IMG/VR virus record: IMGVR_UViG_3300005521_000001
Strand: one strand, 5' to 3'
DNA from: an uncultured virus (IMG/VR IMGVR_UViG_3300005521_000001)
Lineage: Duplodnaviria > Heunggongvirae > Uroviricota > Caudoviricetes
DNA length: 64,000 nucleotides
Shown here: positions 17,960 to 41,889 of the stretch, one piece after another
Numbering within the stretch: the stretch's first letter is position 1
Layout of the letters: each line of letters opens with the position of its first letter
Program-made: the position numbers and the translations under genes
Notes under the pieces: generated by a model
The model's database searches: none
Seen by the model: only the letters and a program-made list of their open reading frames with translations
What the model was told of the DNA's origin: nothing

Positions 17960-18238
17960 GAAAGGGGGCTTTAGGACAGAAACCCCCTCATCTTCATGAG
18001 AGGCACGGGTCGCTAACCCCGTTCCAACAGACCGGTCAATATCCGACAGTCCTTTACCCTGTGAAGGGTGTTGCGTTTCTCCCCCCCTTGCCTCTTGGTG
18101 GCTCAAGTAAAGCCCCCTGCAAAGGATTGAGAAGCGACACCGGAACAATCACAACCTCACGCCCCTACTATGGCAATACCGCTTCCGGTTGCTTCAAGGA
18201 TTGATTTTGGTCATCGGGTGTTCCGTGTTGTCGCCTCT
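17960..18238 (-). ncRNA. candidate structured ncRNA A (about 280 nt)
   Basis: Has its own class I promoter (18257) with no ATG. Stems include 18229-18238/18130-18139 (10 bp starting at +1) and 18108-18118/17963-17973 (11 bp, perfect). Confidence 0.65.
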
Positions 18239-18256
18239 GTTCTATCGTAGGGGCAA

Positions 18257-18280
18257 CCCCTATATAAACCTGTCGCCTAT
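18257..18280 (-). promoter_or_regulatory. class I promoter driving ncRNA A
   Basis: Minus strand ATAGGCGACAGG-TTTATATAGGGG, with the same flanks as the promoters at 30399 and 51601. Confidence 0.75.
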
Positions 18281-18648
18281 TATTCATCATAAGCGTCAGG
18301 ATGAGCAAGCCATGTCTTTTGAGGATATTTTGTTCGACCATCAATACTGGCAACTCTTACAGTTCCGGCGCAGTAAAACAAATGTGGCTTCTTGGCTAAG
18401 TGATTCGATAACCTGTTCATCTCAAATGGTTGCTTGGGTAGTGTAAGAATTTCACCTGTTGTCATCGGTGTTCCATCGGGAAAGGTTGCACCTTCTTTTA
18501 TCATACATTTCCAAAGACGCTTGACATTTCGACCATCAGATTTTCCTAACCTGCCTTTCTTTCGTGTGCCATACTTGGAAGAAGGAACGGTGTCATAATC
18601 AGTCTTTTTCTTGTCTTTCTTCATCTCCTGACTCCTTTGGTTTAACAA
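18280..18648 (-). CDS. basic hypothetical protein, possibly nucleic-acid binding
   Basis: K/R-rich 122-aa ORF downstream of the nuclease; the true start is probably ATG 18624. Confidence 0.65.
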   Translation of the reverse strand: MLNQRSQEMKKDKKKTDYDTVPSSKYGTRKKGRLGKSDGRNVKRLWKCMIKEGATFPDGTPMTTGEILTLPKQPFEMNRLSNHLAKKPHLFYCAGTVRVASIDGRTKYPQKTWLAHPDAYDE

Positions 18649-19828
18649 TTAACATTCTTTGGGGTTTATGTATTTGAGTTCTCTTAATAGCGTCGGCCAC
18701 TTCATCAGGAAGAATAGGCAACACTCTATCAACTGCGGCATTAGATAACGATACCATAGTTCCGAATACTGCCGGTGGCACTAACCTCTGCACTTCGGCA
18801 GGGATATATGACTTTCTCGTTTGTTCTCGCCATTCAACCGACCATTTATCGGTATCTAACTTACAGTCGGACACCGGCATTTGATAATCAAAAATTTCAG
18901 TTTTGATATGATTGTCAATAGCCTTCTTTCTCTTTTCAAGCATTGCTTTGCTTGCTTTTATTGTAGCAAGTTCATCCAACAAATCATCGGTGTCGCCACC
19001 TAATGTCGGTGTCAGCATATCCCATGCTCCATTTTGCATCAAGTCCTGTGCTTTAGGGCATAAGTCAGCATAACTACACCATTGACAACCTTTGCCTATC
19101 TGTGCCGGAACTTTGGTCCAATCGGAAGAATCTATTGAAAGTATATTTTCATATTGACCATGAAGCCAATCCTTGAAAGTCTCAAGTCTTTCATCCGACC
19201 AAACGGTAGTCACCGTTCCATGTCTCATCAAATCAAAGGTGAATTTCAAAGGTCTATCCGGCCACATTTCTCTTGCTACACATAGATAAATTGCCGCTTG
19301 TATGCTATGGTCGGCTTCACCTTGAGTTATGTCTAATCTCTGTGTTTTGTAGTCAATTAATTCAACTGTTCCGTCAGGGTGTTCGATGACTAAATCAACA
19401 AACCCCAAAACTGGTGTTCCTGTTCTCTGTAATATGTATGGAGCATTATGTTGCCCAAATTGCATCTCGACATAAAGCACTCTAACAGGGTGTTTTCCTC
19501 GACGGTCAAACCATCTCTTGAGCATTTTTTTGCCGTCTTCAAAGAATGATAAATCAACTTCTCGCTTGGCGGATATTTCATTGTATAGTTTCATCAACCT
19601 ACCAAAACTGGGCTTTGGTGTGTCTCCGTTCTCGTCAGGTCTTCGCCATTCTTCAAAAGCATCGTGGACATTATTACCCATCCTACCTGCTTGTGAACTA
19701 TCCCTATGATTTCCAATATCCTTTAGTGCCTGTGCGTCAGCAGTAGGAGTTTCATAATGAAAACAATACTTTAAAGAACATTCTTGAGCAGTTTTTAATC
19801 GGCTTGCTGAAATATAAGGCACTTTCAT
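18599..19828 (-). CDS. PD-(D/E)xK exonuclease, Cas4/AddB-like, with Fe-S cysteines
   Basis: ISASRL..C, G..VH, GFVDLV..LIDYKT, Q..IY and CQWCSYADLCP motifs. Confidence 0.88.
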   Translation of the reverse strand: MKVPYISASRLKTAQECSLKYCFHYETPTADAQALKDIGNHRDSSQAGRMGNNVHDAFEEWRRPDENGDTPKPSFGRLMKLYNEISAKREVDLSFFEDGKKMLKRWFDRRGKHPVRVLYVEMQFGQHNAPYILQRTGTPVLGFVDLVIEHPDGTVELIDYKTQRLDITQGEADHSIQAAIYLCVAREMWPDRPLKFTFDLMRHGTVTTVWSDERLETFKDWLHGQYENILSIDSSDWTKVPAQIGKGCQWCSYADLCPKAQDLMQNGAWDMLTPTLGGDTDDLLDELATIKASKAMLEKRKKAIDNHIKTEIFDYQMPVSDCKLDTDKWSVEWREQTRKSYIPAEVQRLVPPAVFGTMVSLSNAAVDRVLPILPDEVADAIKRTQIHKPQRMLIVKPKESGDEERQEKD

Positions 19829-19860
19829 TTTGACTACTCCGTTATCATGTAGTCCTTAGA

Positions 19861-20760
19861 CTACTCCGTTATTAATGTAGCCTTATCAACTGCCTTCCAA
19901 AAGCGTTCTTGTGATGGATTCTCCAAACGGAACGGTTTACACGCTCTGGATTTCTTAATCGAAGCAAAATGCCTCGACTCCAATGAACCTCCTTTAGTGC
20001 GTTGTTGTTGAGTCATTTCAATTATCCAGTCAAATAACGGGTCGGTCATGTCAGGTCGCCCTGCGGCCAAAACAACACGGTTCTCGTTAGGAGTTCCATA
20101 GTTTTCAGTTTTGGTTTTCAAAAGAACCGTTGATAAGAAATGGTAGCCATAGATTTCACCTGCTATCTTCAACCGCTCGTATGGCGAATAGAATAGTTTG
20201 TTGATAACCTTGTAAGCGTGCATTTGTCCTTCCGCATAAGCAGGTAGTGTCTTTTTACCTTGACTCATAGCCTCTTGTTGCCTTGATAGCAATAACTCGC
20301 CCTCGGACATACCATGAACCGATGTTGAATAATGTTCTCGACAAGCCAAGTAATATGCCCCTTCATTCTCCATCACCATAACTCTAACACCGTCGGGGTG
20401 TTCTTCCTTATGTTGTCTCATCAAATCAATAAAAGCCAATGATATATCATTTACTTCATCAGGAGTTCGACATACTTTTCTCAATATGCGACTTCTAAGA
20501 TTAGGTGGAACAATTTCATCTCTTGCTATTAAATCAGCCTGTCCTTCTAAGTCACAATCAACAATACACATTAAAGCCTCTTCTGGTTTAAGTGAGGAAG
20601 ATTTATCACTAAAAAATTGTAGTGCAAAGGTGGATTTCCCGCTACCGGAGAAACCTTGTATCTTCATATGTCTTGTTCTATTCTTAATCATGCTTTCGCC
20701 TGTATCACATGATGCGATAAGTGATGCATAGTTTTCAGCCTTCTTTTTACTTCGTGCCAT
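19861..20760 (-). CDS. RecA-superfamily P-loop ATPase (Sak4/AAA_24-like)
   Basis: Walker A GFSGSGKST and IVDCDLEG; lies between the SSB and the exonuclease. Start is 19 nt from the motif at 20779. Confidence 0.72.
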   Translation of the reverse strand: MARSKKKAENYASLIASCDTGESMIKNRTRHMKIQGFSGSGKSTFALQFFSDKSSSLKPEEALMCIVDCDLEGQADLIARDEIVPPNLRSRILRKVCRTPDEVNDISLAFIDLMRQHKEEHPDGVRVMVMENEGAYYLACREHYSTSVHGMSEGELLLSRQQEAMSQGKKTLPAYAEGQMHAYKVINKLFYSPYERLKIAGEIYGYHFLSTVLLKTKTENYGTPNENRVVLAAGRPDMTDPLFDWIIEMTQQQRTKGGSLESRHFASIKKSRACKPFRLENPSQERFWKAVDKATLITE

Positions 20761-20778
20761 ATATTGAGAGTCTATACC

Positions 20779-20790
20779 CACCTATATAAG
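20779..20790 (-). promoter_or_regulatory. representative class I leaderless promoter
   Basis: CTTATATAGGTG with the TATA element starting 29 nt before ATG 20760. Confidence 0.8.
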
Positions 20791-20795
20791 GGGCA

Positions 20796-22497: not shown

Positions 22498-22547
22498 AAT
22501 ATCACTTCGTATTCTGTCCTTTACTCCCCACCTATATGAAGGAATAC

Positions 22548-24542
22548 TCAATTTTCACCCGTATTGTCATCTAAAGACTCTATTTGAGCATTTAGCATGG
22601 CTTCCCATAGTTCGTCATCTTCGGGTGCTATCTCCTTTGAACTGGTTTTGATGTTCTCGATAACTTCTCTGCGCTTGCTTAATTTGTCTGTGGCTATGTT
22701 TTCACCACTAAACCATGCTGAACCTGAAAATAAATTCTTTTTGTGTTTTGAATTTCCTATTACTTCATCTATCAAGGAGTTTTTACCTTGTGGTCTAAGA
22801 TAGGTTGGTAAAAATAGTGACCTCCAAATACTCGATTGTTCTTTAGATATACAACCAATTGACTTTAGGTTATGTTTATCCGACCCCTTTATTGGATGAA
22901 TAATACTGGCTTTTACTGCCTGTTGTAATATGTCATCGTATTCTTCTATTATATCTGGAAGTTTGTTTCTCGCCGCTTCAACAAATAATGGTGCAAGTGC
23001 ATAATCATCCATCAAACCTGCTTTGGCTTTGACTATTTTGTATGTCTTTCTTCCACCGCCTCTGCCACCGCCTCTGCGACTAACTTCAACCAACCCTGCA
23101 TCTTCTAAGGTTGGCAGGTGCTTTTCCTTCAAGGCATTCTTAGTAGTGCTAAAAGCGTGAATACTCAACCATTGTAGTATGTTGTCCTCCGTCAAAGACC
23201 GTCTTGCTTCTTGCATGGCATTCATTTGTTGAAATACGGTCCATGTTCCATCAGGAACTCCCGATAAACTCGCTCTTAGAACAAGGTCACAAAGTAGTAG
23301 CCCAATTACATTATCTTCAATTGAGGATAGCAAAAATTCTTGTCCATCGTCAGTTTTTTGAACTGGTCGTTGTTTTTGGTGCAATAAACTAACCGCATCT
23401 ATTATTGACAATACTTTTCCTATATCCCTTTGGTGTTGAGCATTTCTTGCAGGGAAGAAGTCAGCCATTAGAGGGGCGAATATGTTCCTAACTTTGTATT
23501 GAGTTAGTCCGAGCATAGACGCTTGTAGCAGTTTCAAATCTGGATGAATAGTAAATTTCTCCGGTCTTGCTTTTTGCATTAACGCATTTTTGACAACACT
23601 ATCAACCTTCTCAATCGTGGTATCGGGGGTCATAATCAATTGACGGGTTATCTGTTCAGCCTCGCTTGGATTTCTTGTAGTCAGGGTGATAAATGACGGC
23701 CTTCCTCTTATGATGAAGTCTTTTGTTTCTATTTCGCCCGATAACTCATTCTTAATCGGAGTTTTCCAAACTAACTCATCATCGTCACCGCTCATAATCG
23801 GTTTCATTTTTTTGATAAAAGCGTATGATTCATCCTTTTCCAAGACAACAATACAACGCCCATCAACATTGACAATAAAATTTCCTTCTTCATCAATCTC
23901 ATCGTAGTCGTATTTCAATGCCTCTTTCGATGCACCCGCTAAAACCATTATCATGCTCTTAGGAAAACCGTTTCTCGCCGTCAGGGTCATGTATGTTTTC
24001 CCACTGGCCGACTGTCCTATCATTTCAAGATTAAGTGGATTGTCGGTCTTACAAGACAAGAAAACAAGGAAGGTTAGCATCAGGTTTGCATCATCACCAA
24101 CAAACGGTGTTTCTCTTGATTCGTGGAGAATTGAATTTACCTTATCCAACAAATGTTGTTCACCTAAAAATTTGTTAATGGTATTCTCTTCAATAGCCCC
24201 ATAAGTGCTTTCTTCGCCTTCAAAGGTTTCAGTCTCAACTTGAATTTTATCTTTCATCGGGGCAGGTGTATATTTTCCATCCCGAAGTATAGTTCCGGCT
24301 TGTAGGAAGTCATCTGTAAAATCTTTAGAATCAACAATACCTGCACTTTTAGCAAGTCGGGCGATTGAGTGTTGGGATAGGACATTTACCTTGCCTTGAG
24401 GCTTTTCGTCTATCTCAACCGCAAACTCCATCCTACCCTTTGTTGATGTAAGGAAGGTCAAAGATATGCTTATGTCGCCCGATTCAAACTCAAATACGGT
24501 TGAAGATTCGGGGGATTGTTTTACTTCAAGGTCAGTCGCCAT
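22548..24542 (-). CDS. MCM-like AAA+ ATPase, putative replicative helicase
   Basis: PLNLEMIGQSASGKT Walker A, acidic Walker B-like VVLEKDE, EQITR (candidate Arg finger) and a wHTH-like C-terminal region; next to the SSB. Confidence 0.65.
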   Translation of the reverse strand: MATDLEVKQSPESSTVFEFESGDISISLTFLTSTKGRMEFAVEIDEKPQGKVNVLSQHSIARLAKSAGIVDSKDFTDDFLQAGTILRDGKYTPAPMKDKIQVETETFEGEESTYGAIEENTINKFLGEQHLLDKVNSILHESRETPFVGDDANLMLTFLVFLSCKTDNPLNLEMIGQSASGKTYMTLTARNGFPKSMIMVLAGASKEALKYDYDEIDEEGNFIVNVDGRCIVVLEKDESYAFIKKMKPIMSGDDDELVWKTPIKNELSGEIETKDFIIRGRPSFITLTTRNPSEAEQITRQLIMTPDTTIEKVDSVVKNALMQKARPEKFTIHPDLKLLQASMLGLTQYKVRNIFAPLMADFFPARNAQHQRDIGKVLSIIDAVSLLHQKQRPVQKTDDGQEFLLSSIEDNVIGLLLCDLVLRASLSGVPDGTWTVFQQMNAMQEARRSLTEDNILQWLSIHAFSTTKNALKEKHLPTLEDAGLVEVSRRGGGRGGGRKTYKIVKAKAGLMDDYALAPLFVEAARNKLPDIIEEYDDILQQAVKASIIHPIKGSDKHNLKSIGCISKEQSSIWRSLFLPTYLRPQGKNSLIDEVIGNSKHKKNLFSGSAWFSGENIATDKLSKRREVIENIKTSSKEIAPEDDELWEAMLNAQIESLDDNTGEN

Positions 24543-24594
24543 ATCTGTCAAGGTGAATACCCACCATTATGAATTAATCCTTCAAACCACTCTC

Positions 24595-24690
24595 TTTAGT
24601 TTATACATATATGTTATCTGTTATGTGTGTGTGTTAGTATGTGTTGTAGTATGAATAATTAGGATAACCCCCTAAAGGGGGTTAAAGAAT
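24595..24690. other. candidate replication origin (low-complexity AT/TG tract plus a 9-bp inverted repeat)
   Basis: TATGTG/TAGTATG repeats at 24600-24655 and TAACCCCCT-AA-AGGGGGTTA at 24665-24684, upstream of the helicase. Confidence 0.35.
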
Positions 24691-24787
24691 CAGACAATTG
24701 CAGGGTTTGAACCGTTAAGGTCTTTCAAAACTATATGCAAGAAAAACACTTGGCGACAAAAACACCAATTAATTGTAATCATTAATT

Positions 24788-25076
24788 GAAAAAGTGTAAG
24801 GGGGCAAATTGCCTAATCGGGTATGCCCCCCTACGGGGCGAAGGCCGTTAAGGTAGGTCAGTCTGCAAGCCAGTTTAGTGATGCAACAACTGCGCCATTC
24901 TTGGTCAAGCAAATTCAATTGGCGGCCAACCCTTCGTTTGCTTACCTACCCATGCTATGTCATATCCCGCCCTGCTCGGCATCACCCGTTAGGTCAGTAT
25001 GGCTTTCAAGTCTTGCACGGCCACCCAAACTTATACCAGTCCGAGTGTTCTTCGGTGGGGGGTTTGACTCCCCTAC
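24788..25076 (-). ncRNA. candidate structured, pseudoknotted ncRNA B (about 285 nt)
   Basis: Class I promoter at 25095 with no ATG. The predicted +1 G (25076) opens an imperfect terminal stem with 24796-24808, followed by UUUUU. Several nested helices and one crossing helix. Confidence 0.65.
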
Positions 25077-25094
25077 AAACTACCCTATCAGTCG

Positions 25095-25118
25095 CCCCTA
25101 TATAAAGGTGTCGCCTAT
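25095..25118 (-). promoter_or_regulatory. class I promoter driving ncRNA B
   Basis: Minus strand ATAGGCGACACC-TTTATATAGGGG. Confidence 0.75.
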
Positions 25119-26953
25119 TAGTTAGATAAATCCAATGCCATTTGTAAAGTTCTTGTCAAATCGGCTGACTCTCTTCCTACTGTCAAAGTCATAGATGGTG
25201 GGCTTCCAACAGTGTAAGACCATGTGACACCCATTATTCTATGAACTCCTGACACGCCTGTTGTAGCAAATTCCATAGCATCACCGACTCTAATGTCAAA
25301 TGTCGAAGGAATACCATCAATTTGATACCTAACTTTTGTTCTTCCAATGTTATTTAACATCAATTTTGCATATTTACTTGCTTGAATATCAGTTTGAACT
25401 GACTTTTCTTTGAATATCCTTTGAACTGGTCTTGAAGGGTAAATGGCACTATTCAATGGTGGATATGTATAATTTATTCCGGCTTCTTCATTGATTACAA
25501 TAACTACATTGAAGAAGTCCAAATCCCCTTTGTCTTGTTGAACATTGGTCGGGTAAAAGTCCAAAGGAACGGCAGTTCTTGGTAAACTACCGCCTTTTAA
25601 TGGTTGAAGATTCGGGTCTGTCAAATCTTGAAGTATTTTGATATTAACATACCCATTATTTTCAGCCTTGACTGTGTGAATTTTAGGAGCGGCATTCATA
25701 AAATTCAAAACCGTTTGACAAGCACTTAAAATTGATTTATTCTCTAATTTAAGTGAATTAGAAACAATAACATTTGATTGAACAAGTATTGTATCTATGG
25801 GAATTGGGGTTGAAGTCATGGATATTAAATTTTTCAGAACCCCTGCTCCGTCAATTGTTGTAGTTAATTTGGTTGCTTGAACTATTTCATTCGATAGGTA
25901 GCCGAGAGTGTCTAAGCATGTGATAGTTATTTGATTTCCACTTTCTAACAAATCTGATACATATCCTGTGAAAATTAAAGGTGGAGAACTCCAACTATGG
26001 GGTGCAAGATAACATTGTATTGTATCACCAATGTTCACAATCCCTTCTCTTCTCCCCCCGATACTTGAAACAGAGATGGTCATGTTTCGTGGTGCATTCA
26101 TTTGCTCGGACATAGAGATTCCTGTTATTCCTTTCAATATCCCCAAACCATTGACAACAATAAGTGGACATGACGGGGTTGCTTCATCTTCCGATATGTC
26201 ACCATAGATATTGCGATACATTACTTGTCTTGACCGTGCAAAAAATACCCTATGTCTCCATCCATTTCTTAATCCACCAAGTCTCATTGACTTTGGCCTA
26301 AATTGATATTTTAACCCCTCTGGATTCCAACCGCCATTTGTGAAACCTAAATCTCCTAAATCGAACTCTAATGCTCCGTCTTGAATACTCGATGGTTCGT
26401 TATTTGAAAAGGGGGTTGTAGTAAATGCAAACCCACCCCTTGAACCTCCACCCCTCCTTGTTGTTAGGTCATAACTGTCATCTAATGGTGATGAAGTATA
26501 ATAGTTAAAACCAAAACCCGTGACCGTTCCATTGCCGAGCGGGGTTGTTGGATTGGATGCAGTATTTTTGAATATCTGTGGGTCAAAAGGTCTTGGCACG
26601 GCCAAACTTGTATAACAAACAGTTTCTATCTTGTCTTGGACATAACTACCGCCTATGTCGGATGGAAAAGGTATCAAGGCCAAACCGAAGTCATCTGGAA
26701 AATGCATTGGCCTCTCCATTAGTTCTTTCTCACTTGGAGAAGAGGCTATCGGAGATGAATGCTCAATGATACCTTGTTTAACTGTTTCAGCGTAGGTTCT
26801 TGAAACCCATCTGGCAATAGCAGTTTTTGGTATTCTGTGGTCTTGGGCTATTTCGTCAATATCAGTTTGCATATCGCTTGGTGGTAGTATGTAAGCAAAA
26901 CCATCTTCCGGCTTCCTAACAATCCTATTATACCGCTCAATAGCATCGGACAT
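25118..26953 (-). CDS. tail hub / baseplate protein (gpD/gp27-like C-terminal half)
   Basis: MSEQMNAPRNMTISV..NIGDTIQ..IFTGYVSD..ITITCLDTLGYL and DIRVGD..HRIMGVTWSY patterns; class II-like promoter. Confidence 0.7.
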   Translation of the reverse strand: MSDAIERYNRIVRKPEDGFAYILPPSDMQTDIDEIAQDHRIPKTAIARWVSRTYAETVKQGIIEHSSPIASSPSEKELMERPMHFPDDFGLALIPFPSDIGGSYVQDKIETVCYTSLAVPRPFDPQIFKNTASNPTTPLGNGTVTGFGFNYYTSSPLDDSYDLTTRRGGGSRGGFAFTTTPFSNNEPSSIQDGALEFDLGDLGFTNGGWNPEGLKYQFRPKSMRLGGLRNGWRHRVFFARSRQVMYRNIYGDISEDEATPSCPLIVVNGLGILKGITGISMSEQMNAPRNMTISVSSIGGRREGIVNIGDTIQCYLAPHSWSSPPLIFTGYVSDLLESGNQITITCLDTLGYLSNEIVQATKLTTTIDGAGVLKNLISMTSTPIPIDTILVQSNVIVSNSLKLENKSILSACQTVLNFMNAAPKIHTVKAENNGYVNIKILQDLTDPNLQPLKGGSLPRTAVPLDFYPTNVQQDKGDLDFFNVVIVINEEAGINYTYPPLNSAIYPSRPVQRIFKEKSVQTDIQASKYAKLMLNNIGRTKVRYQIDGIPSTFDIRVGDAMEFATTGVSGVHRIMGVTWSYTVGSPPSMTLTVGRESADLTRTLQMALDLSN

Positions 26954-26962
26954 ATTGTATGC

Positions 26963-27253
26963 TTATTGGTTATCGTTATTAACCATTTTAGGGATAAATG
27001 TTTTACCTTCTCCCCTTTTACCTGTGGTTGAAGTGTCAGTGGGTGTGGTGAAAGATTTACCTTCATTTCTTACACCTGTTAAACAATACATAATTTTCCC
27101 TTTCTCTGCATTCCATGCGTAAACCTTGTCGCCTATAAACAATTTGCTAACCGCACCTTGTTTTCTATCTGGTCTAAATTCTTCAATCTCTTTCTTAACT
27201 GCGTCGCACCCAATGGTGAACCATTCTTCGGCATCTCTTGCTTCTTTGTCCAT
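26963..27253 (-). CDS. hypothetical protein
   Basis: Class I motif at 27272, 19 nt from the ATG. Confidence 0.7.
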   Translation of the reverse strand: MDKEARDAEEWFTIGCDAVKKEIEEFRPDRKQGAVSKLFIGDKVYAWNAEKGKIMYCLTGVRNEGKSFTTPTDTSTTGKRGEGKTFIPKMVNNDNQ

Positions 27254-27297
27254 GTTTCATCCTATGGGTCACTCCTATATAAAGGTGTCGTATATAT

Positions 27298-27420
27298 TCA
27301 CTTTTTAGTGAACCATTTCATGTCTGTATTCCATTTAGCGTGGCACTTCCGGCATATCAATTGGACTTTATCACCAAAGGAATTACCTCTAACAGAACCT
27401 TTGCACTTAGGGCATTTCAT
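27298..27420 (-). CDS. 40-aa zinc-finger microprotein (CPKC..CRKC)
   Basis: Translated by hand as MKCPKCKGSVRGNSFGDKVQLICRKCHAKWNTDMKWFTKK; ATGA-coupled. Confidence 0.65.
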   Translation of the reverse strand: MKCPKCKGSVRGNSFGDKVQLICRKCHAKWNTDMKWFTKK

Positions 27421-27935
27421 ACAGTCCACCAATCAGGTTTCTCCCGACCACAATTCCACTTCATAACAAAGTGGGGTTCGATTAACATGTAATATCGTCT
27501 ATTGGCCTCTTCACCACTCCAACCGACCATATCTTTCTTCATTTCTTGAGTCAAAAATTCTTCGTTAAAATCTTTTGGCGGAACTGATAATTTACCTCTT
27601 TTTACATATCGCCTTAAACTATTTGCATCTATCTCTATGTAATGTGGCTCAAGAGGATGAGATTTACCAAATCTAAGTTTAAACTCTCGGCATAGTGCCA
27701 ATCCCCATTCTAAAGTCCAAATAAAATTATTCCTTGTTCTTTTAGCCCAATTAAAAGATATAGTATTTAGACGATAATGCTTTGGGCGAGTGTTTGGGAG
27801 TCTATGTTCAGGACAACCTGCATCTTTCAAAACCGTTAGTAGTATATGAAATGCAAACTCTGTTTTAGTTAAAATATCACTGTCGCATAAATCCTGTGCT
27901 GAAAGAACTGGATTCGCATTGGTGTATATTATCAT
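27417..27935 (-). CDS. pyrimidine-dimer DNA glycosylase-like protein (divergent)
   Basis: NPVLSAQDLCD, W..RTRNNFIW..GLALCREF..RFGKSH, NRRYY and PDWW resemble the DenV-related phage family. Confidence 0.55.
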   Translation of the reverse strand: MIIYTNANPVLSAQDLCDSDILTKTEFAFHILLTVLKDAGCPEHRLPNTRPKHYRLNTISFNWAKRTRNNFIWTLEWGLALCREFKLRFGKSHPLEPHYIEIDANSLRRYVKRGKLSVPPKDFNEEFLTQEMKKDMVGWSGEEANRRYYMLIEPHFVMKWNCGREKPDWWTV

Positions 27936-28045
27936 TTTATCGCCCTTTCGTATCTATCTAACAACATAGAAGCCAATTCATCTTGACCTAAATGTTGTAT
28001 GATTGTTATTGCATCTATCGCTATCTTTTGTATTGAATCATTCAT
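27932..28045 (-). CDS. 37-aa microprotein
   Basis: Translated by hand; ATGA overlaps at both ends. Confidence 0.55.
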   Translation of the reverse strand: MNDSIQKIAIDAITIIQHLGQDELASMLLDRYERAIK

Positions 28046-28122
28046 AATGAAGCCTCTTCAAACTCTTCGTAAATGTATTCCTCTGTTTCTATTCTAATTT
28101 TTAATACGGGTTCATTCGACAT
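28042..28122 (-). CDS. 26-aa acidic microprotein
   Basis: Translated by hand as MSNEPVLKIRIETEEYIYEEFEEASL; fills a gap in the coupled chain. Confidence 0.4.
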   Translation of the reverse strand: MSNEPVLKIRIETEEYIYEEFEEASL

Positions 28123-28300
28123 TACAAATGCCTCCTATTACTACAATTGGCATCTGTCGGTGATTTGCTTTTGCTAATTCAACTGCGCTATGTTCGTCAG
28201 GTATGCTACAATCAACAAGTGCCATCATAAACATAGCCCTGCTGATATACGGCATTGGGTCATTTTTCTTTGGCATTTTGAACTTCATTGGGTTGGTCAT
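28112..28300 (-). CDS. small hypothetical protein
   Basis: Class I motif at 28319, 19 nt from the ATG. Confidence 0.65.
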   Translation of the reverse strand: MTNPMKFKMPKKNDPMPYISRAMFMMALVDCSIPDEHSAVELAKANHRQMPIVVIGGICNVE

Positions 28301-28337
28301 GTATGTCCGTTAGTGGCTCACCTATATAACATCTTCC

Positions 28338-30095: not shown

Positions 30096-30120
30096 AATCT
30101 ATACTAAAATACCCACCTAT

Positions 30121-30366: not shown

Positions 30367-30424
30367 TTTTATTCCCCTCTGTTTAATCGTAGGGGTCACA
30401 CCTATATAAAGGTATCTTATATTG

Positions 30425-30739: not shown

Positions 30740-30757
30740 AAATAGTCCTATCAGCCA

Positions 30758-30770
30758 CTACTATATAAAG
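30758..30770 (-). promoter_or_regulatory. class I-like promoter driving ncRNA C
   Basis: Minus strand CTTTATATAGTAG, the same variant as at 39706, which precedes a protein gene. Confidence 0.7.
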
Positions 30771-30863
30771 ATATTGTTAATATATTCAATTCTTTATAAA
30801 CTGTCGAAGGTTTTGATTTGATACCTTTGTTTCTTTTGGAGGTTATTGACCACGATAGCCCTA

Positions 30864-33800
30864 TCACGGCCAACCTGCAATTCCCTCACCTGTGTTGGTA
30901 TTCTCACCAATTGACATAGTTCCGCCTCCGGTGAAAGGATAATATAACTTATTTCCAAAGTGATGTGTTGAATACCATGATAACTCATTCGTAGTCCATC
31001 GTAAATCTATTTCGCCCGCATTATGGCCATGATGCCTTTGATAACGCAACTGTGGTGCGGTGTGTGTGAAGTCCTCATGCCCCGAACCTGTTTGAGCCGA
31101 TGAAGCCGGAGAGTAATTTTGACCATCGGCACTAACCATTGATGGAACAGACAACCAACGGACATTCACATCTCTTGCTACGATAGGAGAGGTTTGAGAT
31201 ATTTCACCCGATGGTATGAATACCTCCATAAAATGGCTTCTTTTCTCCGAATACATTGTATTTTTATTCGCCCCTCCATCCGGCCATGAAAGTGTTTGTT
31301 GCTCATAACCTTCTAATTGCGCTCTGGTGGGTGTTCCAGCCCATTGATAAGGCGGTGCGCCACCCGCCCTATGAGCGGAAGTAGCAAAGATTGGGTCGCC
31401 AATCATGATATTTGGAATAGTAAAACCAAGAACAATATGCAGTTCGTTTTTATCCGATATTGTTGAAGTCATGTGTTTATAGTTATACTTGTAGTCATTG
31501 ACCGAATTAAACAGTGCCATAAATTGTATTCCCGACCCTGCTACATAATTTAAAGACCAATCTTCCTTAGTTCTCCAAGATGTGATGAATGAATCACCAC
31601 TGTTATTTTCTATTATTGATGAAACATATGCTATATCATCACTGTCAATTACTGCGTCATAAAATGAAACCGCATCATATCCCATGTTTGCTCCAATAAT
31701 TAGTGTTTGATTTGCTACATCAAATGTGAATCGCCCCGATGGTGTTAGACCCTTAACCACTTTTCCAAGATTTGCATATACTGAATCGCTAACAAATTGT
31801 GGCCATGCGGTGGCGAAGTTAAACCCAGTTCCATAATTATAACTAACACCTTTAAAGAATACCACTGGTGTATCATCACCCTGTAAACACACCTTCGGTT
31901 TAGAGTTATCATATGTATGATGCCCCTTCTTCATGAGAAGCGTATTTGTGACTGTATCACCACTTGGCCTGTTAGATACAATTTGCCAAGTGCTTGAAAC
32001 CGTAAAACTACTACTATTGTGAACATAACCCGTTCCTGACGCCAATGTAGGCCATAATGTCTCCGTATTCAATTTTAAGGTGTATAAAATATGAGTTCCG
32101 GCGGGTATAGCAACATCATTATTTCTTTCAACCACTACACATGCCAAGTGCAACCTGTCTTTGGAGTCACAAACTAAACTTGGTTCTCTTAAATCCCAAT
32201 CGTTAGAACCACCGACCAAAACTGGCGTATGAACCGACCAATCCCAAGAATACACTAACTCCGGTTGGGTTGTGATTAAAGTTTTTGACGCATAAGTGTA
32301 ATACAAAACATGCTGACCGGATGGTAGTTTCACTTCAACAATCGCATGTATTGTTCCGTTGCTATCAGAAACAAATGCTGAACCTTGAGTGCTATAATCC
32401 GTTGGTGTAGCCCCTGCTATTATCTTCAAATGTGGTCCGACTTCATCTTTTCCATCGTGGACTTGATTATTAGTTTTAACTGCCTTCCTATTCCAAAATA
32501 AATCCGAATGAGCCGGTTTGGAATAATGAGTCCATACTGGTATATTGTCCGACCCTGTTAATCCGCTACGGTCTAAACTAAAAGTGTGAAGTGTTCCGTC
32601 TGGTGTTCTCAAAATACGCTGACCCATTCCTAAACCTGTAAGACCGGATGAAGTAAGAGAATTAATCGCCCCGACAGACGGACCTCCATCTTGAGAAGCC
32701 CTTTGTTTTGGTGTATAAGGTTGCATTGTTGTGTCGTCAAATCCACTTCCCCTTGCACTTACAATTCCTCCACTATCCCAAACTGGCCTTATTGAGTTAG
32801 ATAGGTGAACATCAACCGTTGATTGTAATTGTTCAGCAGTAGCAATGTAATCATGTTTGCTCATCCTATCCACTTGAGCGATTAATGCCGGAGAGTATTT
32901 CTCATTAGCAACATGCAATGCATCATAATCATTTCCTGTGTTAATCGGTATTGCACCTGCATGAAAATTCTCTGTTGGATGGTCCTTCCAAAATTCTGAA
33001 AATGTGGGTGCAAGAAGGTTCGCTCCACCACTGGCAATCGGTTTTCCTACTATTCTTTGTTGAGCGTTTAGTCTATGGTATTCTATTTCACCTTGAGACA
33101 TAGAAGTATCAATGTTCCAAAGGTTGGTTCTAAGATATGGTTGTGCTATGTATGGTGACATGACGCTTGTTCCACTCAAGCCCATTTGTTTTATTTTTCC
33201 AATCATCGGGTTATTTTCTAAATTATATCTATGTAAAGGTAAATGCAGTTCAAGGTCTAAACTATTTTTTGCCTTTGCTCTTGCCCTTACATTTACTTTC
33301 TCTGGTATTAGTAATTCCAATGGCATGTCATAACCGACACCTGCATTAACTTGCTTCCATAATCTATCAATTTTGTAAGGATGGTCTTTACTTATCATAC
33401 CATAATGAAGCGGTCCATGATGTGATACAACGCACATGCCTCCTTGATATTGATTTATATTACCACTCAATGAGTCTGTTATAGTATCGGCAACAAAATT
33501 ATTCCATAACCCCAAAGTCTGTGTTATTGTCACTGGCGGAGTTATACCAATTGAAGCGGGTTGGTCGGAGAAAAACTGTGAACCATCCGATGGTGTAGGG
33601 TCGTATAATCCGGTAGCAAAACTCCAACCCGCCCATCCGAGTTCTTGATATGGGTTTGCCGCTCCCCCATAATCAGCAAACCCTATCGTGGTTGTGTTGT
33701 AATGTGTTTGGAATAAATGATGCCAATTCAAAAGTAAATTTTCCCACTGACTGGATATATCCCATGTTTGGTATGTTTCTCCATTAGCCGGATTCATCAT

Positions 33801-36800
33801 TGAAAAATTAATAGTCGGTTGATAGAGTGGATAGCCACTAAATGGTCTTGTTAATTTAGCATCAACATACGCCATAAAATCAGCCGGTATGGGTTTATTT
33901 GAGAATAAGTTCGTCATTAGTGCAGGTATCAATGTATCATCTTCACGCCAAAGCATAAAATCTTCTAATTGTAAATGTGGTATTGATTTGGCAAAATTAG
34001 GAAAAGCCATTCGACACTCTGGATAAGAACCGTAAGTAATTGGTATTGCTTTTTGACCGCTCTCTTGAAACCAATATGATAATTGAGAACCCGACCACCA
34101 ACCAACATCTTTATTCCAATTTTGATAAACCAAACTTTTCTCTTTGGTAGCGTCAAAAACGGCAGGTTTTGAATCAAGTTCATATCTAAGTGTAGGCGAC
34201 CATGTTAAGGTTGTTGTTGTTTCTGTTAGTTCTTCGGGGTCATTTGTGAAAGTAAATGTTTTACTACCCTTAATTTCTCTTGCTTTTTTGTTATTAAATA
34301 ATAACACCAAACTGCGAGCCGATGTTCCACCAAGCATAGAAGTCCATGTTGGAACTGGTCCGAAGTTATCATATCCACCCAAGTATTGTAATCCACTATC
34401 TAAAATTGGAAGTGGCGGTCCTTTGCTTGTGTCTTCAAGTCCAAGAATCGGGTCAAAATGGGTTGTTAAGGTATCGGCGGGAATAGCAGGGTTTGTTCCT
34501 ATTATCGGTTTACATTGTCCATTATGATAATAATAACCCGCCGGACAACGCCCCTGTTGGGCTATATCAGGTTGTGGTGGATAGCCAATTATTGGAGAAG
34601 GATATTCGGTCTTCTCTGTTATGTAATCACGATGAATAGCCAATATCTTCATCCTTCCATCTTCCATTATTTGAAAATCACCTACATGGAAGGTCGGGTG
34701 AAGCATTGGGCTTTCAGCATCATTTAATGAGTGTCGTGGGTGCATCATGAAAGTTTTCAACTCGACTCCAAGATAGCGCATGGCTTCAATCTGTGGAAAT
34801 ACCCAATCATGAACTGACCAACAATCAGTGCCTTTATTCCTCATGCTCTCTGTTTGTGTAATAGGATAATTTGTGTTAGAGTGAAGTCCTTTTACTGAAT
34901 CAGCACCAAATAATTTTTCTAAATACCATTTATCTAAAATAGTGTCATGTTCTTTATTGGTATAGAACGGGTCAAGTGAAGGAGTGTATTTGAAAATTAA
35001 CATTTCTGGTCCATCTGGAACTTCAAGAGATTCTATTTTATTAACGGAACTTTCTTTCATTTGTCCTATTCCCCAAACTGTCGGGTTTAAATGAGCCATT
35101 TCTATAACATCAGTGGCGACAAATAACTCATCATTGAAAACATCAGCCGACCAATGGTGGCTAATTCCTCCTTGTTGGTAAAAGCCACCTGCCTCTATTG
35201 CCCCCGATAACAAAGGTATTTCAGCAAAGCCGGATGAAGCCAATGGCTTGAACGGTGTTAATTGAATTAAATTCCAATTTCTCGGCATAACACTTTTAGG
35301 ACATTCAACATCAAGTGGAGAACAAAGTTTTGCTGATTCGGTAGCATCCACATATATTCTTTCTAAGTCTGGATTAATTCTAAAAATTGCATGGTAAAGA
35401 TAACAACCTTCATCTTTCAAATTCAAATCAACATTAATTCGTGCCTCTGGATTATTTCTTTGGGTTGGTGTTCCTATTCTTTCGTTATTGTTATGACCTT
35501 CAATAGACAATCTTGCTCTTGGGGTTAGGCTGACTAACACATGGTAATCCACATTTGGTTTGTTGAATTTAAAAGTAGTAGTGGATGGATGACTACCACC
35601 TGCCTCAACATCAACCTGCTTATGATTTACCATAGCCGGTATCACTTGTATTTTAGTCGGTATCATATTTTTCATAAAATCCTGACTTGCACTTGTTGTT
35701 TTTTGATAATTTCCACCACTTAAAGAATTATTATCTCCTAAAATATAGCCAACGGGCAATACTGTATCTTCACCCGTATTTGTAGGAATAAGTATGTCAT
35801 CACCCAAAAATGGAACGGTTGAACCTGATATGTGTCGAGTGCATCTTCCAATTCTAAATTTGCTTGCATTGTCATTTCTTGCATCTTCCATGTTGTAATG
35901 TGTTGCACTTTGAAGAACATCTCTGTTGCCTGTTGTCATCATTACCTCACTTATTGGCTGAATATATTCTCCGTCAGTTCCATAGCGATAAATGCGGTCA
36001 GCATCAGTTCGATTATGATATGCAAGTCCATTTCTTCTAATAGCCAAGCCACTGTGAACTTGTATGTTAATACCTGCAAATGTGCCTTCATCAACCCCCG
36101 ACCATGTATTATTTACATTGTCAGGGTTGCCATCTTCCGACACCGACATAAAAGCAGTAGCAGTAAAAATTCCTTCATAACCCACTAATCCGCACGCATC
36201 AGTAAGTCCGATATTTCCCAAATCTGGTCTTCCGAGAGGTCGCCACCTTCTTTCACTTGAACTTAATACTGGATTTCCATTTGAACTAACAAAATCATTA
36301 GTTCCAATGTATTGTATTGTTTCGTTAAAAGGCATATCGGGAATTGGGTCAGCCGAATGAACGGCGTTTCCACCAAGCCCGTCAGGTTGTGATATTGTTT
36401 TGTAAGGAACAAGCGTAGCATCGGTATGTTGCCTAATAGGTTGATAGGATTGTAAGTTCAGTGACCAATGTTGGCTCATTGTGAATGAATCATCTCTTGC
36501 ACCTAACATTGGAGTTCCTAAAAAATCAGAAGCATTTATCACTGGTGCAGAGTTCAAAGATATGGCGTATTTCATATTATGATTATCACCATATGTAGCC
36601 CCCATACCATTGCTTGGTAGGCACATTTTAGTTTTATGAACCACTCCTGAACCAACATGAAGTGGACCATCTTGTGAAGCAGTATATCGCCCTGCATATA
36701 CATCATGTGCGGGCAATATCGTATCATTCCCACCCTGCAACACTTGTTCGTTATTTGTAATCGTGCTGAATCTATGCCAAGTGTGATTAGCAGGTCGCCC

Positions 36801-37307
36801 CCTACCACCAAGACCTGTTGTATATTGGTCGCCTTTGTCTGTGTTGTATCGCCCCGCCTTTGTATTAGTAAGAACAGTTCCAATTGGTTGAGTTCTATGT
36901 AAGGCAAACCTACCATTGACCGTGTGTAGCATCATTTGAGCATATTCCAAATCACCTGTTCCAAAATTCAACATTGGAGAACTTGTATTGACTGTTTGAC
37001 CCAAAGCCCATGTGTTTATTTCACTTGCTGAACCATCAATCCCTATCCATGAATATGATAGTGCATAACCATCAATTGTAGTGGGAGTTTGATTTCCCCA
37101 TCTTGTCACGGCTTTTGGTTTATCAACGGCATTTGCTAAATGGTCAGGCTTCCATTGTTCGTTATTCTCTTTCATAGGGTTGCCAGTTTTGCTTGCACTG
37201 GGATAACCGTCATTTGTAAGCGAGTCATCATCAGCCCAAACAAATGTTAAGGGAAGACCTGACCGTGTTCCGACTGGCGGTGTTAAATCAACATTTGTCA
37301 CGGCCAT
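30864..37307 (-). CDS. giant (2147 aa) putative virion protein with a beta-propeller-like C-terminal region
   Basis: Repeated blades (RTPDGTLH, SDSNGTIH, CDSKDRLH, IDSDDIAY, SDKNELH) and a class II promoter at 37329. Confidence 0.6.
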   Translation of the reverse strand: MAVTNVDLTPPVGTRSGLPLTFVWADDDSLTNDGYPSASKTGNPMKENNEQWKPDHLANAVDKPKAVTRWGNQTPTTIDGYALSYSWIGIDGSASEINTWALGQTVNTSSPMLNFGTGDLEYAQMMLHTVNGRFALHRTQPIGTVLTNTKAGRYNTDKGDQYTTGLGGRGRPANHTWHRFSTITNNEQVLQGGNDTILPAHDVYAGRYTASQDGPLHVGSGVVHKTKMCLPSNGMGATYGDNHNMKYAISLNSAPVINASDFLGTPMLGARDDSFTMSQHWSLNLQSYQPIRQHTDATLVPYKTISQPDGLGGNAVHSADPIPDMPFNETIQYIGTNDFVSSNGNPVLSSSERRWRPLGRPDLGNIGLTDACGLVGYEGIFTATAFMSVSEDGNPDNVNNTWSGVDEGTFAGINIQVHSGLAIRRNGLAYHNRTDADRIYRYGTDGEYIQPISEVMMTTGNRDVLQSATHYNMEDARNDNASKFRIGRCTRHISGSTVPFLGDDILIPTNTGEDTVLPVGYILGDNNSLSGGNYQKTTSASQDFMKNMIPTKIQVIPAMVNHKQVDVEAGGSHPSTTTFKFNKPNVDYHVLVSLTPRARLSIEGHNNNERIGTPTQRNNPEARINVDLNLKDEGCYLYHAIFRINPDLERIYVDATESAKLCSPLDVECPKSVMPRNWNLIQLTPFKPLASSGFAEIPLLSGAIEAGGFYQQGGISHHWSADVFNDELFVATDVIEMAHLNPTVWGIGQMKESSVNKIESLEVPDGPEMLIFKYTPSLDPFYTNKEHDTILDKWYLEKLFGADSVKGLHSNTNYPITQTESMRNKGTDCWSVHDWVFPQIEAMRYLGVELKTFMMHPRHSLNDAESPMLHPTFHVGDFQIMEDGRMKILAIHRDYITEKTEYPSPIIGYPPQPDIAQQGRCPAGYYYHNGQCKPIIGTNPAIPADTLTTHFDPILGLEDTSKGPPLPILDSGLQYLGGYDNFGPVPTWTSMLGGTSARSLVLLFNNKKAREIKGSKTFTFTNDPEELTETTTTLTWSPTLRYELDSKPAVFDATKEKSLVYQNWNKDVGWWSGSQLSYWFQESGQKAIPITYGSYPECRMAFPNFAKSIPHLQLEDFMLWREDDTLIPALMTNLFSNKPIPADFMAYVDAKLTRPFSGYPLYQPTINFSMMNPANGETYQTWDISSQWENLLLNWHHLFQTHYNTTTIGFADYGGAANPYQELGWAGWSFATGLYDPTPSDGSQFFSDQPASIGITPPVTITQTLGLWNNFVADTITDSLSGNINQYQGGMCVVSHHGPLHYGMISKDHPYKIDRLWKQVNAGVGYDMPLELLIPEKVNVRARAKAKNSLDLELHLPLHRYNLENNPMIGKIKQMGLSGTSVMSPYIAQPYLRTNLWNIDTSMSQGEIEYHRLNAQQRIVGKPIASGGANLLAPTFSEFWKDHPTENFHAGAIPINTGNDYDALHVANEKYSPALIAQVDRMSKHDYIATAEQLQSTVDVHLSNSIRPVWDSGGIVSARGSGFDDTTMQPYTPKQRASQDGGPSVGAINSLTSSGLTGLGMGQRILRTPDGTLHTFSLDRSGLTGSDNIPVWTHYSKPAHSDLFWNRKAVKTNNQVHDGKDEVGPHLKIIAGATPTDYSTQGSAFVSDSNGTIHAIVEVKLPSGQHVLYYTYASKTLITTQPELVYSWDWSVHTPVLVGGSNDWDLREPSLVCDSKDRLHLACVVVERNNDVAIPAGTHILYTLKLNTETLWPTLASGTGYVHNSSSFTVSSTWQIVSNRPSGDTVTNTLLMKKGHHTYDNSKPKVCLQGDDTPVVFFKGVSYNYGTGFNFATAWPQFVSDSVYANLGKVVKGLTPSGRFTFDVANQTLIIGANMGYDAVSFYDAVIDSDDIAYVSSIIENNSGDSFITSWRTKEDWSLNYVAGSGIQFMALFNSVNDYKYNYKHMTSTISDKNELHIVLGFTIPNIMIGDPIFATSAHRAGGAPPYQWAGTPTRAQLEGYEQQTLSWPDGGANKNTMYSEKRSHFMEVFIPSGEISQTSPIVARDVNVRWLSVPSMVSADGQNYSPASSAQTGSGHEDFTHTAPQLRYQRHHGHNAGEIDLRWTTNELSWYSTHHFGNKLYYPFTGGGTMSIGENTNTGEGIAGWP

Positions 37308-39044: not shown

Positions 39045-39080
39045 ATTGGCGACTAATTCAGCCACCTATATAACAGTTAT

Positions 39081-39416: not shown

Positions 39417-39457
39417 GGTTAGCCATTAGGACTGTCCTATATAAAGATACCGCCTAT

Positions 39458-39688: not shown

Positions 39689-39729
39689 GATTAGCGATTA
39701 GGCCACTACTATATAATTATATCGCCTAT

Positions 39730-41022: not shown

Positions 41023-41047
41023 AGATGATGGTTATGCGATACGGATA

Positions 41048-41395
41048 TTAACTAACTCTGTAATTTGATAATGTGAGGCTTTTCTTTAATGGGGTAGGTG
41101 TGCTACCTCCGGTGGCGGTTAAGGAAATGTCCTCGCTTATTTTCAATGGACTTTCGATTCTCTTTCTGTGACCAAAACTCCAACCACAGGGCTTCCCATC
41201 CTTATGATACACAATACAATACTTGCTAACTGGGTATTCCTCCCCGTCTTGCACCTTCATGCGTCTATATCCTTGTTTCTTGACCTTACCAACACATACT
41301 GCTGAATCATAATTATATTCTCTATCCTTTGATGATGAAACACTCGGATTGACCATTCTCAAAGCCCCTCCACAGTTAGGACAAGGCATACTCAA
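41048..41395 (-). CDS. zinc-ribbon protein (CPNCG)
   Basis: N-terminal CPNCGG and further cysteines. Confidence 0.65.
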   Translation of the reverse strand: MSMPCPNCGGALRMVNPSVSSSKDREYNYDSAVCVGKVKKQGYRRMKVQDGEEYPVSKYCIVYHKDGKPCGWSFGHRKRIESPLKISEDISLTATGGSTPTPLKKSLTLSNYRVS

Positions 41396-41613
41396 ACCTC
41401 CTTGTCAGGGTGACTCTTGGGTAGGTTCTTACGCCTTGTTGAGGCCATTTTGTCAAGGTGCTTTACTAAGTTTTCAGCCGCAGTATCAAACCGCTTCTTA
41501 GAATGCACATCAACTACCATTTGAGCATAAAGTGCGCTCAAATCTATGTTCTGTGTTATGTGTTCTATTATCTCATACTCGGCATGTTTCACACTACCCG
41601 CTCTCATACTCAT
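41392..41613 (-). CDS. small hypothetical protein
   Basis: Class I motif at 41633. Confidence 0.7.
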   Translation of the reverse strand: MSMRAGSVKHAEYEIIEHITQNIDLSALYAQMVVDVHSKKRFDTAAENLVKHLDKMASTRRKNLPKSHPDKEV

Positions 41614-41644
41614 GAGAGGGTCTTGTATAACCCACCTATATTAG

Positions 41645-41726
41645 GGGTAAGAGATTCGTAGGCCGATTCTAACGGCTCTTTTGCATAAGGTATTGCTCGT
41701 TTGGTGGCGAGTAATCCTGTCCTCTC
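41645..41726 (-). ncRNA. candidate small ncRNA D (about 80 nt) with a T-loop-like hairpin
   Basis: Class I promoter at 41745 with no usable ORF; hairpin GCCG-UUAGAAU-CGGC. Confidence 0.4.
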
Positions 41727-41757
41727 AAACCATCCTACGGGTCACGCCTATATAAAC

Positions 41758-41889
41758 CTATCGTCTATAATGTTCATTAGAAGTGATTAACCCCTGACGA
41801 TATTCTTCAAGTGCTTCACGCATACATGCCTTGCATTTGAGTTTGCCTTCAAACTGCGGATTGTGAACCAAAGGGCGAATGCACTTCAT
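41758..41889 (-). CDS. 43-aa Cys/His microprotein
   Basis: Translated by hand as MKCIRPLVHNPQFEGKLKCKACMRE..; TAATG-coupled to the HNH gene. Confidence 0.55.
   Translation of the reverse strand: MKCIRPLVHNPQFEGKLKCKACMREALEEYRQGLITSNEHYRR

Follow-up and report, generated by a model that had tools for sequence, protein, structure and literature searches.

In the 64,000-nucleotide (nt) stretch of viral DNA analysed here (the window; IMG/VR record IMGVR_UViG_3300005521_000001, from an uncultured member of the Caudoviricetes), four minus-strand promoter motifs lead into blocks without open reading frames (ORFs): B1 (17950-18238), B2 (24789-25076), B3 (30425-30739) and B4 (~41644-41726). We assign a probability of about 0.6 to the reading that B1, B2 and B3 are stand-alone accessory genes for non-coding RNAs, exchanged by recombination at promoter repeats, the RNAs themselves being predicted. 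An earlier sequence-only reading had placed structured RNA at all four sites; the comparisons point to stand-alone structured-RNA genes behaving as accessory cassettes for B1 and B3, and less securely for B2, but not for B4. The RNA families are new ones, but of a kind already known, the virus-borne structured RNAs. The promoters and the relatives, which are loci (L numbers) and records (G numbers) from marine metagenomes, suggest a marine archaeal, magrovirus-like virus; no record confirmed the name 'magrovirus'. The nearest record (G001) is a 100% identical twin that adds no comparative information, and the homologue sets comprise four distinct sequences for B1 (window, L006, L007, L008), two for B2 and two for B3.

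The class I promoter motif in its exact form (TTTATATAG; consensus form of the archaeal promoter, NTTATATAG) occurs eight times in the window, on the minus strand only, and the looser pattern NTTATAT[AG]G has 19 sites on the minus strand and one on the plus strand. At 12 of the 19 minus-strand sites the 9-nt motif is followed, 20-22 nt on, by an ATG at the head of an ORF, which indicates leaderless mRNAs; the spacing is the same in the loci of related viruses that were examined. One of the remaining seven sites has a short GAGG leader, and six have neither (18268, 25106, 30769, 41756, 58230 and 58141). The first four of these are the promoters of B1 (18260-18268, the exact motif with AATAGGCGAC directly upstream), B2 (25098-25106), B3 (30761-30769) and B4 (41748-41756), all on the minus strand, and ORF-free sequence follows each of them. 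A count of 22 nt from the motif places the predicted transcription starts (+1) at 18238, 25076, 30739 and 41726, where the sequence-only reading had also put them. Each is a purine (A or G) preceded by TTT or AAC, and each occupies the first or the second position of a predicted helix. The class I motif thus resembles archaeal promoters built on a TATA box and B recognition element (BRE), with an A/T-rich box at a fixed distance and a purine start after a pyrimidine, the starts being predicted ones.

The genes downstream of the blocks were said to have promoters of their own, and they do: such motifs lie in promoter sense at 17940-17947, 30402-30410 and 41631-41638, and a ATGGTGGG variant precedes the ATG at 24541. 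Two of these are instances of a second motif, TAGGTGGG, which is located approximately 18 nt ahead of ATGs and has 9 sites where 1.3 are expected, including 17940-17947, 20777-20784, 22527-22534, 30112-30119, 41631-41638, 61311-61318 and 63466-63473, all on the minus strand. TAGGTGGG precedes the genes that follow B1 (18 nt ahead of the ATG of a 276-aa gene) and B4 (ahead of a 73-aa gene), and downstream of B3 stands the class I promoter in a second, complete copy (30402-30410, minus strand), which would drive a 92-aa gene and forms a direct repeat with 30761-30769 around the 359-nt B3 cassette. TAGGTGGG, which is at times fused with the TATA motif (as TTATATAGGTGGG), probably represents another class of promoter, serving leaderless genes, and not a ribosome-binding site.

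Two further features of the promoters were noted. The gap at 58083-58238 contains the tandem class I promoters of 58230 and 58141, with short non-coding starts before the next gene; its folding energy has a z score of -2.8, the lowest among 11 control gaps, and three metagenomic relatives (L147, L150 and L157) have an ORF-free 55-nt transcript at the equivalent place. The class I motif is also lineage-specific. There are 19 sites of NTTATAT[AG]G in the window, and 9 and 16 on the main strands of G002 and G003, respectively; the whole records G004, G005 and G006 (GC contents of 58.7%, 37.7% and 37.7%) have 0 to 4, none of them at leaderless spacing.

The blocks had been described as GC-rich, which is true of B1, B2 and B3 and not of B4. 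In a window of GC content 0.40, the three long blocks have GC contents of 0.53, 0.53 and 0.55 and folding energies of -0.34 to -0.39 kcal/mol per nt; the 11 other intergenic gaps range over 0.33-0.46 and -0.17 to -0.30 kcal/mol per nt, and B1 to B3 are outliers in both GC content and stability among 14 non-coding stretches. B4 (0.47; -0.20 kcal/mol per nt) is not an outlier. Covariation was controlled with slid alignments and with shuffles, and folding with dinucleotide shuffles. The minimum free energy of B1 in the window has z scores of -3.5 and -3.6 relative to dinucleotide shuffles, and B1 homologues overall range from -2.5 to -4.9; B4 is borderline at -1.8 and -2.2 (overall range -1.2 to -2.2). 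The longest stop-free stretches of B1, B2 and B3 are matched or exceeded in 0.18, 0.13 and 0.30 of 1000 shuffles, respectively, and the reading frames of the blocks are disrupted between homologues by insertions and deletions of 1, 3, 4, 7 and 25 nt. No conserved ORF was found in B1, B2 or B3 by stop-free length or by the frames of homologues, and the peptide-coding outcome that the sequence-only reading had allowed for did not materialize.

B1 consists of a 5' domain (18133-18238, minus strand) that would form a long hairpin from +1, and a 3' core (17950-18132, minus strand) of helices 3-11 that ends in CCCCCUUUCUAUUCC near 17955. The sequence of the 5' domain (105 nt) has been swapped in L007 and L008, with base pairing at the base of the hairpin kept. 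The 183-nt core is identical to its homologues at 170/187, 170/183 and 164/208 positions, the last figure counting a 25-nt insertion. This conservation (91-93%), compared with identities of only 0.71-0.72 at third codon positions of the adjoining gene, indicates purifying selection and is too high for a pseudogene. In the consensus fold of 65 pairs, 252 of 260 cells (96.9%) are paired, and six of the pairs have double-sided changes, compared with 0-1 in six slid controls; none of 500 shuffles reaches six. Compensatory changes are seen in the internal helices 5 and 7, and the 25-nt insertion of L008 falls inside the loop of a hairpin whose stem is compensatorily changed. The promoter-sense strand of B1 folds better than its antisense by z score (-2.5 to -4.9 versus -0.4 to -1.95) and by alifold energy (-72.8 versus -53.2 kcal/mol), and has 29 G-U cells versus 5. 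An alternative long-range helix (GGGGGCUU/AAGCCCCC) also has a double change, from G-C to A-U in L008, so the outer architecture of B1 is unsettled. An exact-pattern scan of IMG/VR with a B1 island gave 35 matches, of which 5 are real by blastn and the rest chance, and no DNA match to B1 was found in the 'phages' collection.

B3 is present in IMG/VR solely as the identical twin, which is also the only sequence found by its 5' island pattern. Its single diverged homologue, L156, was found by a metagenome scan with a promoter-plus-initiator pattern, and sits ahead of a gene unrelated to that of the window. All 118 cells of the 59-pair consensus of B3 and L156 are paired, and 14 pairs have double-sided changes versus 0-1 in slid controls, the compensatory changes being distributed over helices 1, 2, 5, 6 and 9-12. 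The predicted RNA (30425-30739, minus strand) begins at +1 with the P1 hairpin, followed by unpaired CCGAAGAA and a three-way junction with two multi-hairpin domains, then AGUAUUAA, a 3' hairpin and UUU. The helix that closes the junction, GAUA/UAUC, is GAGA/UCUC in L156. The P1 loop ACCAACC is complementary, by eye, to GGUUGGU, and neither segment differs between the two sequences; the segments may form a pseudoknot. The 3' hairpin is present in the window sequence and not in L156, and is therefore a separable module. Nine matches to the B3 island in contigs of bacterial metagenome-assembled genomes scored only 7-10 bits by nhmmer and were taken as chance. Searches of the collected DNA with nhmmer profiles of B1, B2 and B3 yielded two additions only: L146 has an incomplete stretch that resembles B3 (E 7e-5), and G004 has the 3' module.

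The long blocks were thought at first to share no primary sequence. B1 is indeed unrelated to B2 and B3, but B2 and B3 align globally with a z score of 5.7, which none of 300 shuffles equals, and they have islands in common at matching distances: GUAGGU, GGUUGG..CCAA, and CCGAAGAA with the hairpin before it. When the islands are combined into one pattern, it matches only three sequences in IMG/VR, which are the ones it was derived from (B2, B3 and L015). The claim of at least three distinct RNAs of approximately 300 nt fares well for B1 and B3 as probable structured-RNA genes, and the relatedness of B2 to B3 brings the number nearer to two sequence classes. The predicted RNA of B2 (24789-25076, minus strand) consists of a 5' hairpin, CCGAAGAA, a body that contains GUAGGUAAGC and the GGUUGG..CCAA hairpin, and lastly a 3' hairpin, after which comes a U5 tract (24789-24793). 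Its one homologue (L015, the same as L155) is 86% identical, and has a 5-base-pair (bp) hairpin with a GAAA loop at the site of a 10-bp hairpin in B2. The case for B2 as a structured RNA is weaker than those for B1 and B3, and leans on this replaced hairpin, on the significant similarity to B3 and on the shared 3' hairpin. A common fold of B2 and B3 was dropped because of a poor joint consensus, and shared modules are proposed instead.

The shared 3' hairpin also ends otherwise different RNAs in other viral contigs. In B3 the module (30423-30474, minus strand) has the conserved loop ACCCGACUGAAACUUAGG, and in B2 (24788-24838, minus strand) it has a shortened loop, ACCCGA..UUAGGC, before the U tract. 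Loci were collected with the loop pattern ACCCGACNNAAACNTAGG, protein-coding matches being set aside as unrelated. In the set of eight instances, to which B2 and B3 belong, pairing holds in 87 of 93 stem cells, 10 of 12 stem columns have double-sided changes versus 0-3 in slid alignments, and eight cells are G-U pairs that point to the promoter-sense strand. The six instances outside the window were used to build a covariance model; since one of these is the B2 homologue, only the B3 match (E 3.6e-9) is independent, and not that at the end of B2 (E 1.7e-9). The module is probably a terminator or an end-protecting hairpin. The next match of the model in the window (E 0.078) is a G/C-rich intergenic hairpin followed by ACUAUUC at 56779-56831 on the minus strand, possibly an ordinary terminator in the same style.

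The spacer past B2 (24552-24789) is AT-rich (33% GC). Within it are runs of ACACACATA, inverted repeats of the AATTAAT type and one perfectly paired hairpin (AACCCCCUUUAGGGGGUU). Its conservation is 97-98% in L010-L013 and 89% in L014 and L015, and it is still recognisable in relatives at a greater distance; it could be a regulatory or replication element.

B4 (41644-41726, minus strand) is predicted to give a short transcript, or a leader, that contains no ORF and continues directly into the next promoter. It has one homologue (L154), which contains a 65-nt addition, and double-sided changes are found at none of its 20 pairs. Comparison leaves B4 unsupported as a structured RNA, and it is probably a short leader or a minor transcript. 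Directly upstream, at 41889-42386, is a gene for a protein with a weak match to HNH endonucleases (E 0.0011, under the Pfam cut-off); a free-standing endonuclease beside a variable slot could bear on the mobility of cassettes.

The locations of the blocks were compared among related viruses. At the B3 slot, L050 has a single hybrid promoter copy directly ahead of the 92-aa gene, whereas in the window the shared left half is followed by B3, a second promoter copy and the shared right half; the matching halves around B3 indicate a precise insertion of RNA and promoter. The two copies of TTTATATAG..GTG that bound B3 are 359 nt apart, and B3 is absent from five of the six close relatives that have upstream sequence. 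At the B1 slot, five of seven close relatives have B1 and two have a small gene instead, L006 holding both; none of five distant relatives has B1, three having small genes and two nothing. The B2 slot in six close loci (L010-L015) is occupied by B2 (two loci), a chimera with the 5' end of B2 (one), another GC-rich RNA (two) or a small gene (one), and in L015 B2 is flanked by two copies of a 25-nt promoter repeat (AATAGGCGATACTGTTATATAGGGG). In L006 and L015, a separate unit of promoter plus small gene lies between the RNA block and the 'downstream' gene. The contention that the blocks are not simply 5' leaders is thus sustained by the precise insertion of B3 and by these intervening genes after B1 and B2. 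No annotation was obtained from PHROGs or Pfam for the proteins that flank the blocks or sit in the slots.

More distant loci contain further unrelated GC-rich, ORF-free cassettes, with some arranged in tandem or occupying both strands. Several more cassettes, from metagenomes (L158, L159, L014, L146/L148 and G004), open with a hairpin and then CCGAAG, and the 5' end of B2 is joined to different bodies in L014 and L159; L156 and L159 are located on a TARA-type scaffold. In L097 (approximately 8700-9200 of G002) and on the reverse strand of L022 (approximately 5900-6300 of G004), tandem GC-rich, ORF-free cassettes on both strands were observed with divergent back-to-back promoters. Arrays of putative RNA cassettes therefore exist in this virus clade.

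In the mechanism that we propose, host RNA polymerase would start at the consensus TATA/BRE-type promoter, the first transcribed base would open a helix, the RNA (~290-315 nt) would fold into junctioned domains, and transcription would stop at a C-rich hairpin plus U tract. The cassettes would be accessory and not part of the virus core, with the same promoter sequence copied at both borders, and recombination between the promoter copies would insert, delete or swap them, so that near-identical viruses hold at a given slot the RNA, another RNA, a small protein gene or nothing. The RNAs would be made, stable and active in trans.

The blocks might instead act in cis, as structured leaders of long read-through transcripts that control the next gene, whether as attenuators, riboswitch-like sensors or processing signals. 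B1 and B4 do abut the next promoter motif, B1, B3 and B4 are without a strong terminator, and conserved unpaired junction nucleotides such as those of B3 are also typical of ligand-binding RNAs. We nevertheless consider leaders unlikely, given that each downstream gene keeps a promoter at leaderless spacing, that B3-free relatives retain that downstream gene with its promoter, that promoter-bearing small genes separate the RNA from the supposedly regulated gene in L006 and L015, that L156 precedes a different gene, and that the hairpin and U5 of B2 are followed by 238 nt of AT-rich spacer. It is likewise improbable that the blocks are selfish or neutral promoter-plus-terminator cassettes, spread by recombination, whose functionless transcripts are structured for termination or recombination only. 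Such cassettes would account for the promoter direct repeats at the borders, the patchy distribution and the mosaic of modules (the 5' end of B2 on other bodies, and the 3' hairpin common to unrelated RNAs). They would not account for a multi-helix structure of ~300 nt, which far exceeds the needs of a terminator, for compensatory changes inside it (B3 helices 1, 2, 5, 6 and 9-12; B1 helices 5 and 7), or for a B1 core at 91-93% identity while synonymous sites are at 72%.

That the blocks are DNA elements (an origin, a packaging site or protein-binding arrays) or decaying gene remnants, with structure owed to high GC content, is very unlikely. Any GC-rich sequence is expected to fold stably, and the chance-level z scores of B2 and B3 and the similar folding of the two B3 strands suit this explanation; against it are the compensatory double changes above slid controls, the G-U pairs that favour one RNA strand (29 versus 5 in B1, and in the 3' hairpin), the helix that begins exactly at the predicted +1, conservation above the level of a pseudogene, and the lack of origin-typical repeats in the blocks as read from the sequence. 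Least credible of all is that the blocks encode small proteins on either strand. Plus-strand ORFs of 96, 100 and 89 codons do overlap B1 to B3 (17914-18204, 24823-25125 and 30552-30821), but their lengths are those that shuffles predict, insertions and deletions in homologues break their frames, no promoter-like motif lies ahead of them, and outside the blocks the plus strand carries just 2 of the 64 chosen ORFs of at least 60 aa.

Several observations weigh against B1 to B3 as exchanged RNA genes. The homologue sets are tiny (four, two and two distinct sequences), and the structures that were examined for covariation were predicted from the same sequences, which biases the results in their favour. 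The sequence-only reading had looked to folding energies better than those of shuffles and to covariation in homologues: the former was obtained for B1, but the z scores of B2 (-1.2 and -1.3) and B3 (-1.35 and -1.95; overall range of the two, -1.1 to -1.95) are at chance level, and covariation was found in B1, B3 and the 3' hairpin but not in B4 or in the body of B2, which differs from its homologue by no double changes and five one-sided changes in 75 pairs. The joint alignment of B2 and B3 (four sequences) gives a poor consensus of -21.9 kcal/mol with many broken cells. The antisense of B3 has better z scores than the sense (-2.3 and -2.7) and a nearly equal alifold structure (62 pairs, 15 double changes), and the assignment of B3 to a strand therefore rests on its promoter and on the G-U pairs of the 3' hairpin. 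Loop conservation in the 3' hairpin set follows from the construction of the search, the stems alone being independent, and the module was found in only 6 of 50 related virus records. B1 and B3 end in short U runs (UUU) only, so that read-through is possible, as it is into the gene after B4, a block of ~85 nt with ordinary GC content and no terminator. Nothing in the analysis points to a specific function.

At first reading the blocks had not been recognised as any of the known RNAs considered, and this was upheld. ARAGORN found no tRNA or tmRNA genes in the window, and Rfam 15 gave no matches at gathering score in the whole window, none at E<=10 in 17800-18400 (B1) and none at E<=1 in 15 related loci. 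In 24500-31000 there were two matches, FsrA with 17.4 bits (cut-off 80) at 24744-24832, overlapping the 3' end of B2, and one on the plus strand within a gene (25551-25626); the region of B4 (41500-41900) was covered by the gathering-score search alone. No match to the blocks at or near the gathering score was found among Rfam families including RNase P, the signal recognition particle (SRP) RNA, GOLLD, ROOL, HEARO, IMES and Ocean-V. The manA model (RF01745; 192 positions, gathering score 55.2 bits) had no match at E<=10 in any of the five related records examined, one of which is the twin of the window with its B2 to B4, and manA is absent from the Rfam results for 17800-18400 and 24500-31000.

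GOLLD, ROOL and manA are large or ornate phage-borne RNAs described as being of unknown function (PMC2864571; PMC12286853; bioRxiv 10.64898/2026.07.01.735769). The blocks resemble them in being virus-encoded, protein-free and multi-helix, with conserved junction nucleotides, a patchy distribution and an unknown job, and manA too is known mainly from marine metagenomes and phages. They differ in that the hosts of those RNAs are bacterial whereas the host of the window virus would be archaeal, in that the predicted RNAs are ~300 nt long with their own archaeal promoter, several per genome and in exchangeable slots, and in that no Rfam model matches the window or the 15 related loci. In their arrangement the cassettes are similar to the 'morons' of phages and to the promoter-stem-loop (PeSL) cassettes known from T4-type phages, both of which are promoter-to-terminator units between core genes, present or absent between close relatives and flanked by regulatory repeats able to mediate shuffling. 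Like morons, the blocks have their own promoter motif (all four), a terminator (hairpin plus U tract in B2 and B3, weak in B1, absent in B4) and presence or absence among relatives; like PeSL cassettes, B3 in the window and B2 in L015 have direct regulatory repeats at both ends. The cargo differs, being predicted structured RNA instead of a small ORF, though small ORFs occupy the same slots; the promoters are archaeal and TATA-type, and recombination is deduced from cassette boundaries. The packaging RNA (pRNA) of phi29 is another virus-encoded structured RNA with a strong promoter, whose sequence diverges while its fold is kept. It is essential and universal in its phage group, whereas the blocks, which were compared with it via Rfam alone, are missing from near-identical viruses, and a core packaging role is therefore unlikely.

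Because the blocks share slots and turnover with small accessory genes, there is about one chance in three that the RNAs serve in host takeover or counter-defence as decoys or scaffolds that bind protein or RNA. The wider group of B2 and B3 has a 5' 'handle' (a hairpin with an A/C-rich loop, then CCGAAGAA) and the 3' hairpin loop ACCCGACUrAAACaUAGG, which may serve the variable bodies as shared modules for binding or for protection of the ends. A more speculative and doubtful proposal is that the clade keeps a fast-turning 'RNA moron' repertoire of numerous structured RNAs, mosaic or unrelated to one another, in which the common end modules dock to one and the same protein, of the virus or the host, or bring about assembly by RNA alone, and the bodies act as decoys against defence or RNA-processing factors.

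The other genes of the window are those of a head-tailed virus and include portal, large terminase, HK97-type capsid and tape-measure-like proteins, a family B DNA polymerase (nearest to those of haloarchaeal tailed viruses, ~23% identity), a clamp-loader-like ATPase and a CobS/CobT-like ATPase. There are two giant ORFs: one of 2147 aa (30864-37307) with no Pfam or PHROG match, and one of 1914 aa (7852-13596) that matches PKD domains only.

The Poseidoniales (marine group II archaea) are, to our knowledge, uncultured. Abstracts on magroviruses describe both these archaea and the viruses that infect them as abundant in surface ocean waters. In the papers searched on magroviruses and on non-coding RNAs of archaeal viruses, among them the main text of PMC5434244 and PMC11706807, neither non-coding RNAs nor promoters of these viruses were found described. 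If the RNAs are expressed, archaeal viruses would share with phages an investment in elaborate RNAs, and at least three new RNA folds would be open to structural study. The promoter grammar of the virus (leaderless spacing and initiator) would be defined, RNA could serve as a carrier of accessory functions that are exchanged at promoter repeats, and the cassette slots would flag places to seek host-interaction genes. If the 'RNA moron' repertoire is true, it would constitute an RNA-based arm of the arms race between archaeal viruses and their hosts, with no described counterpart.

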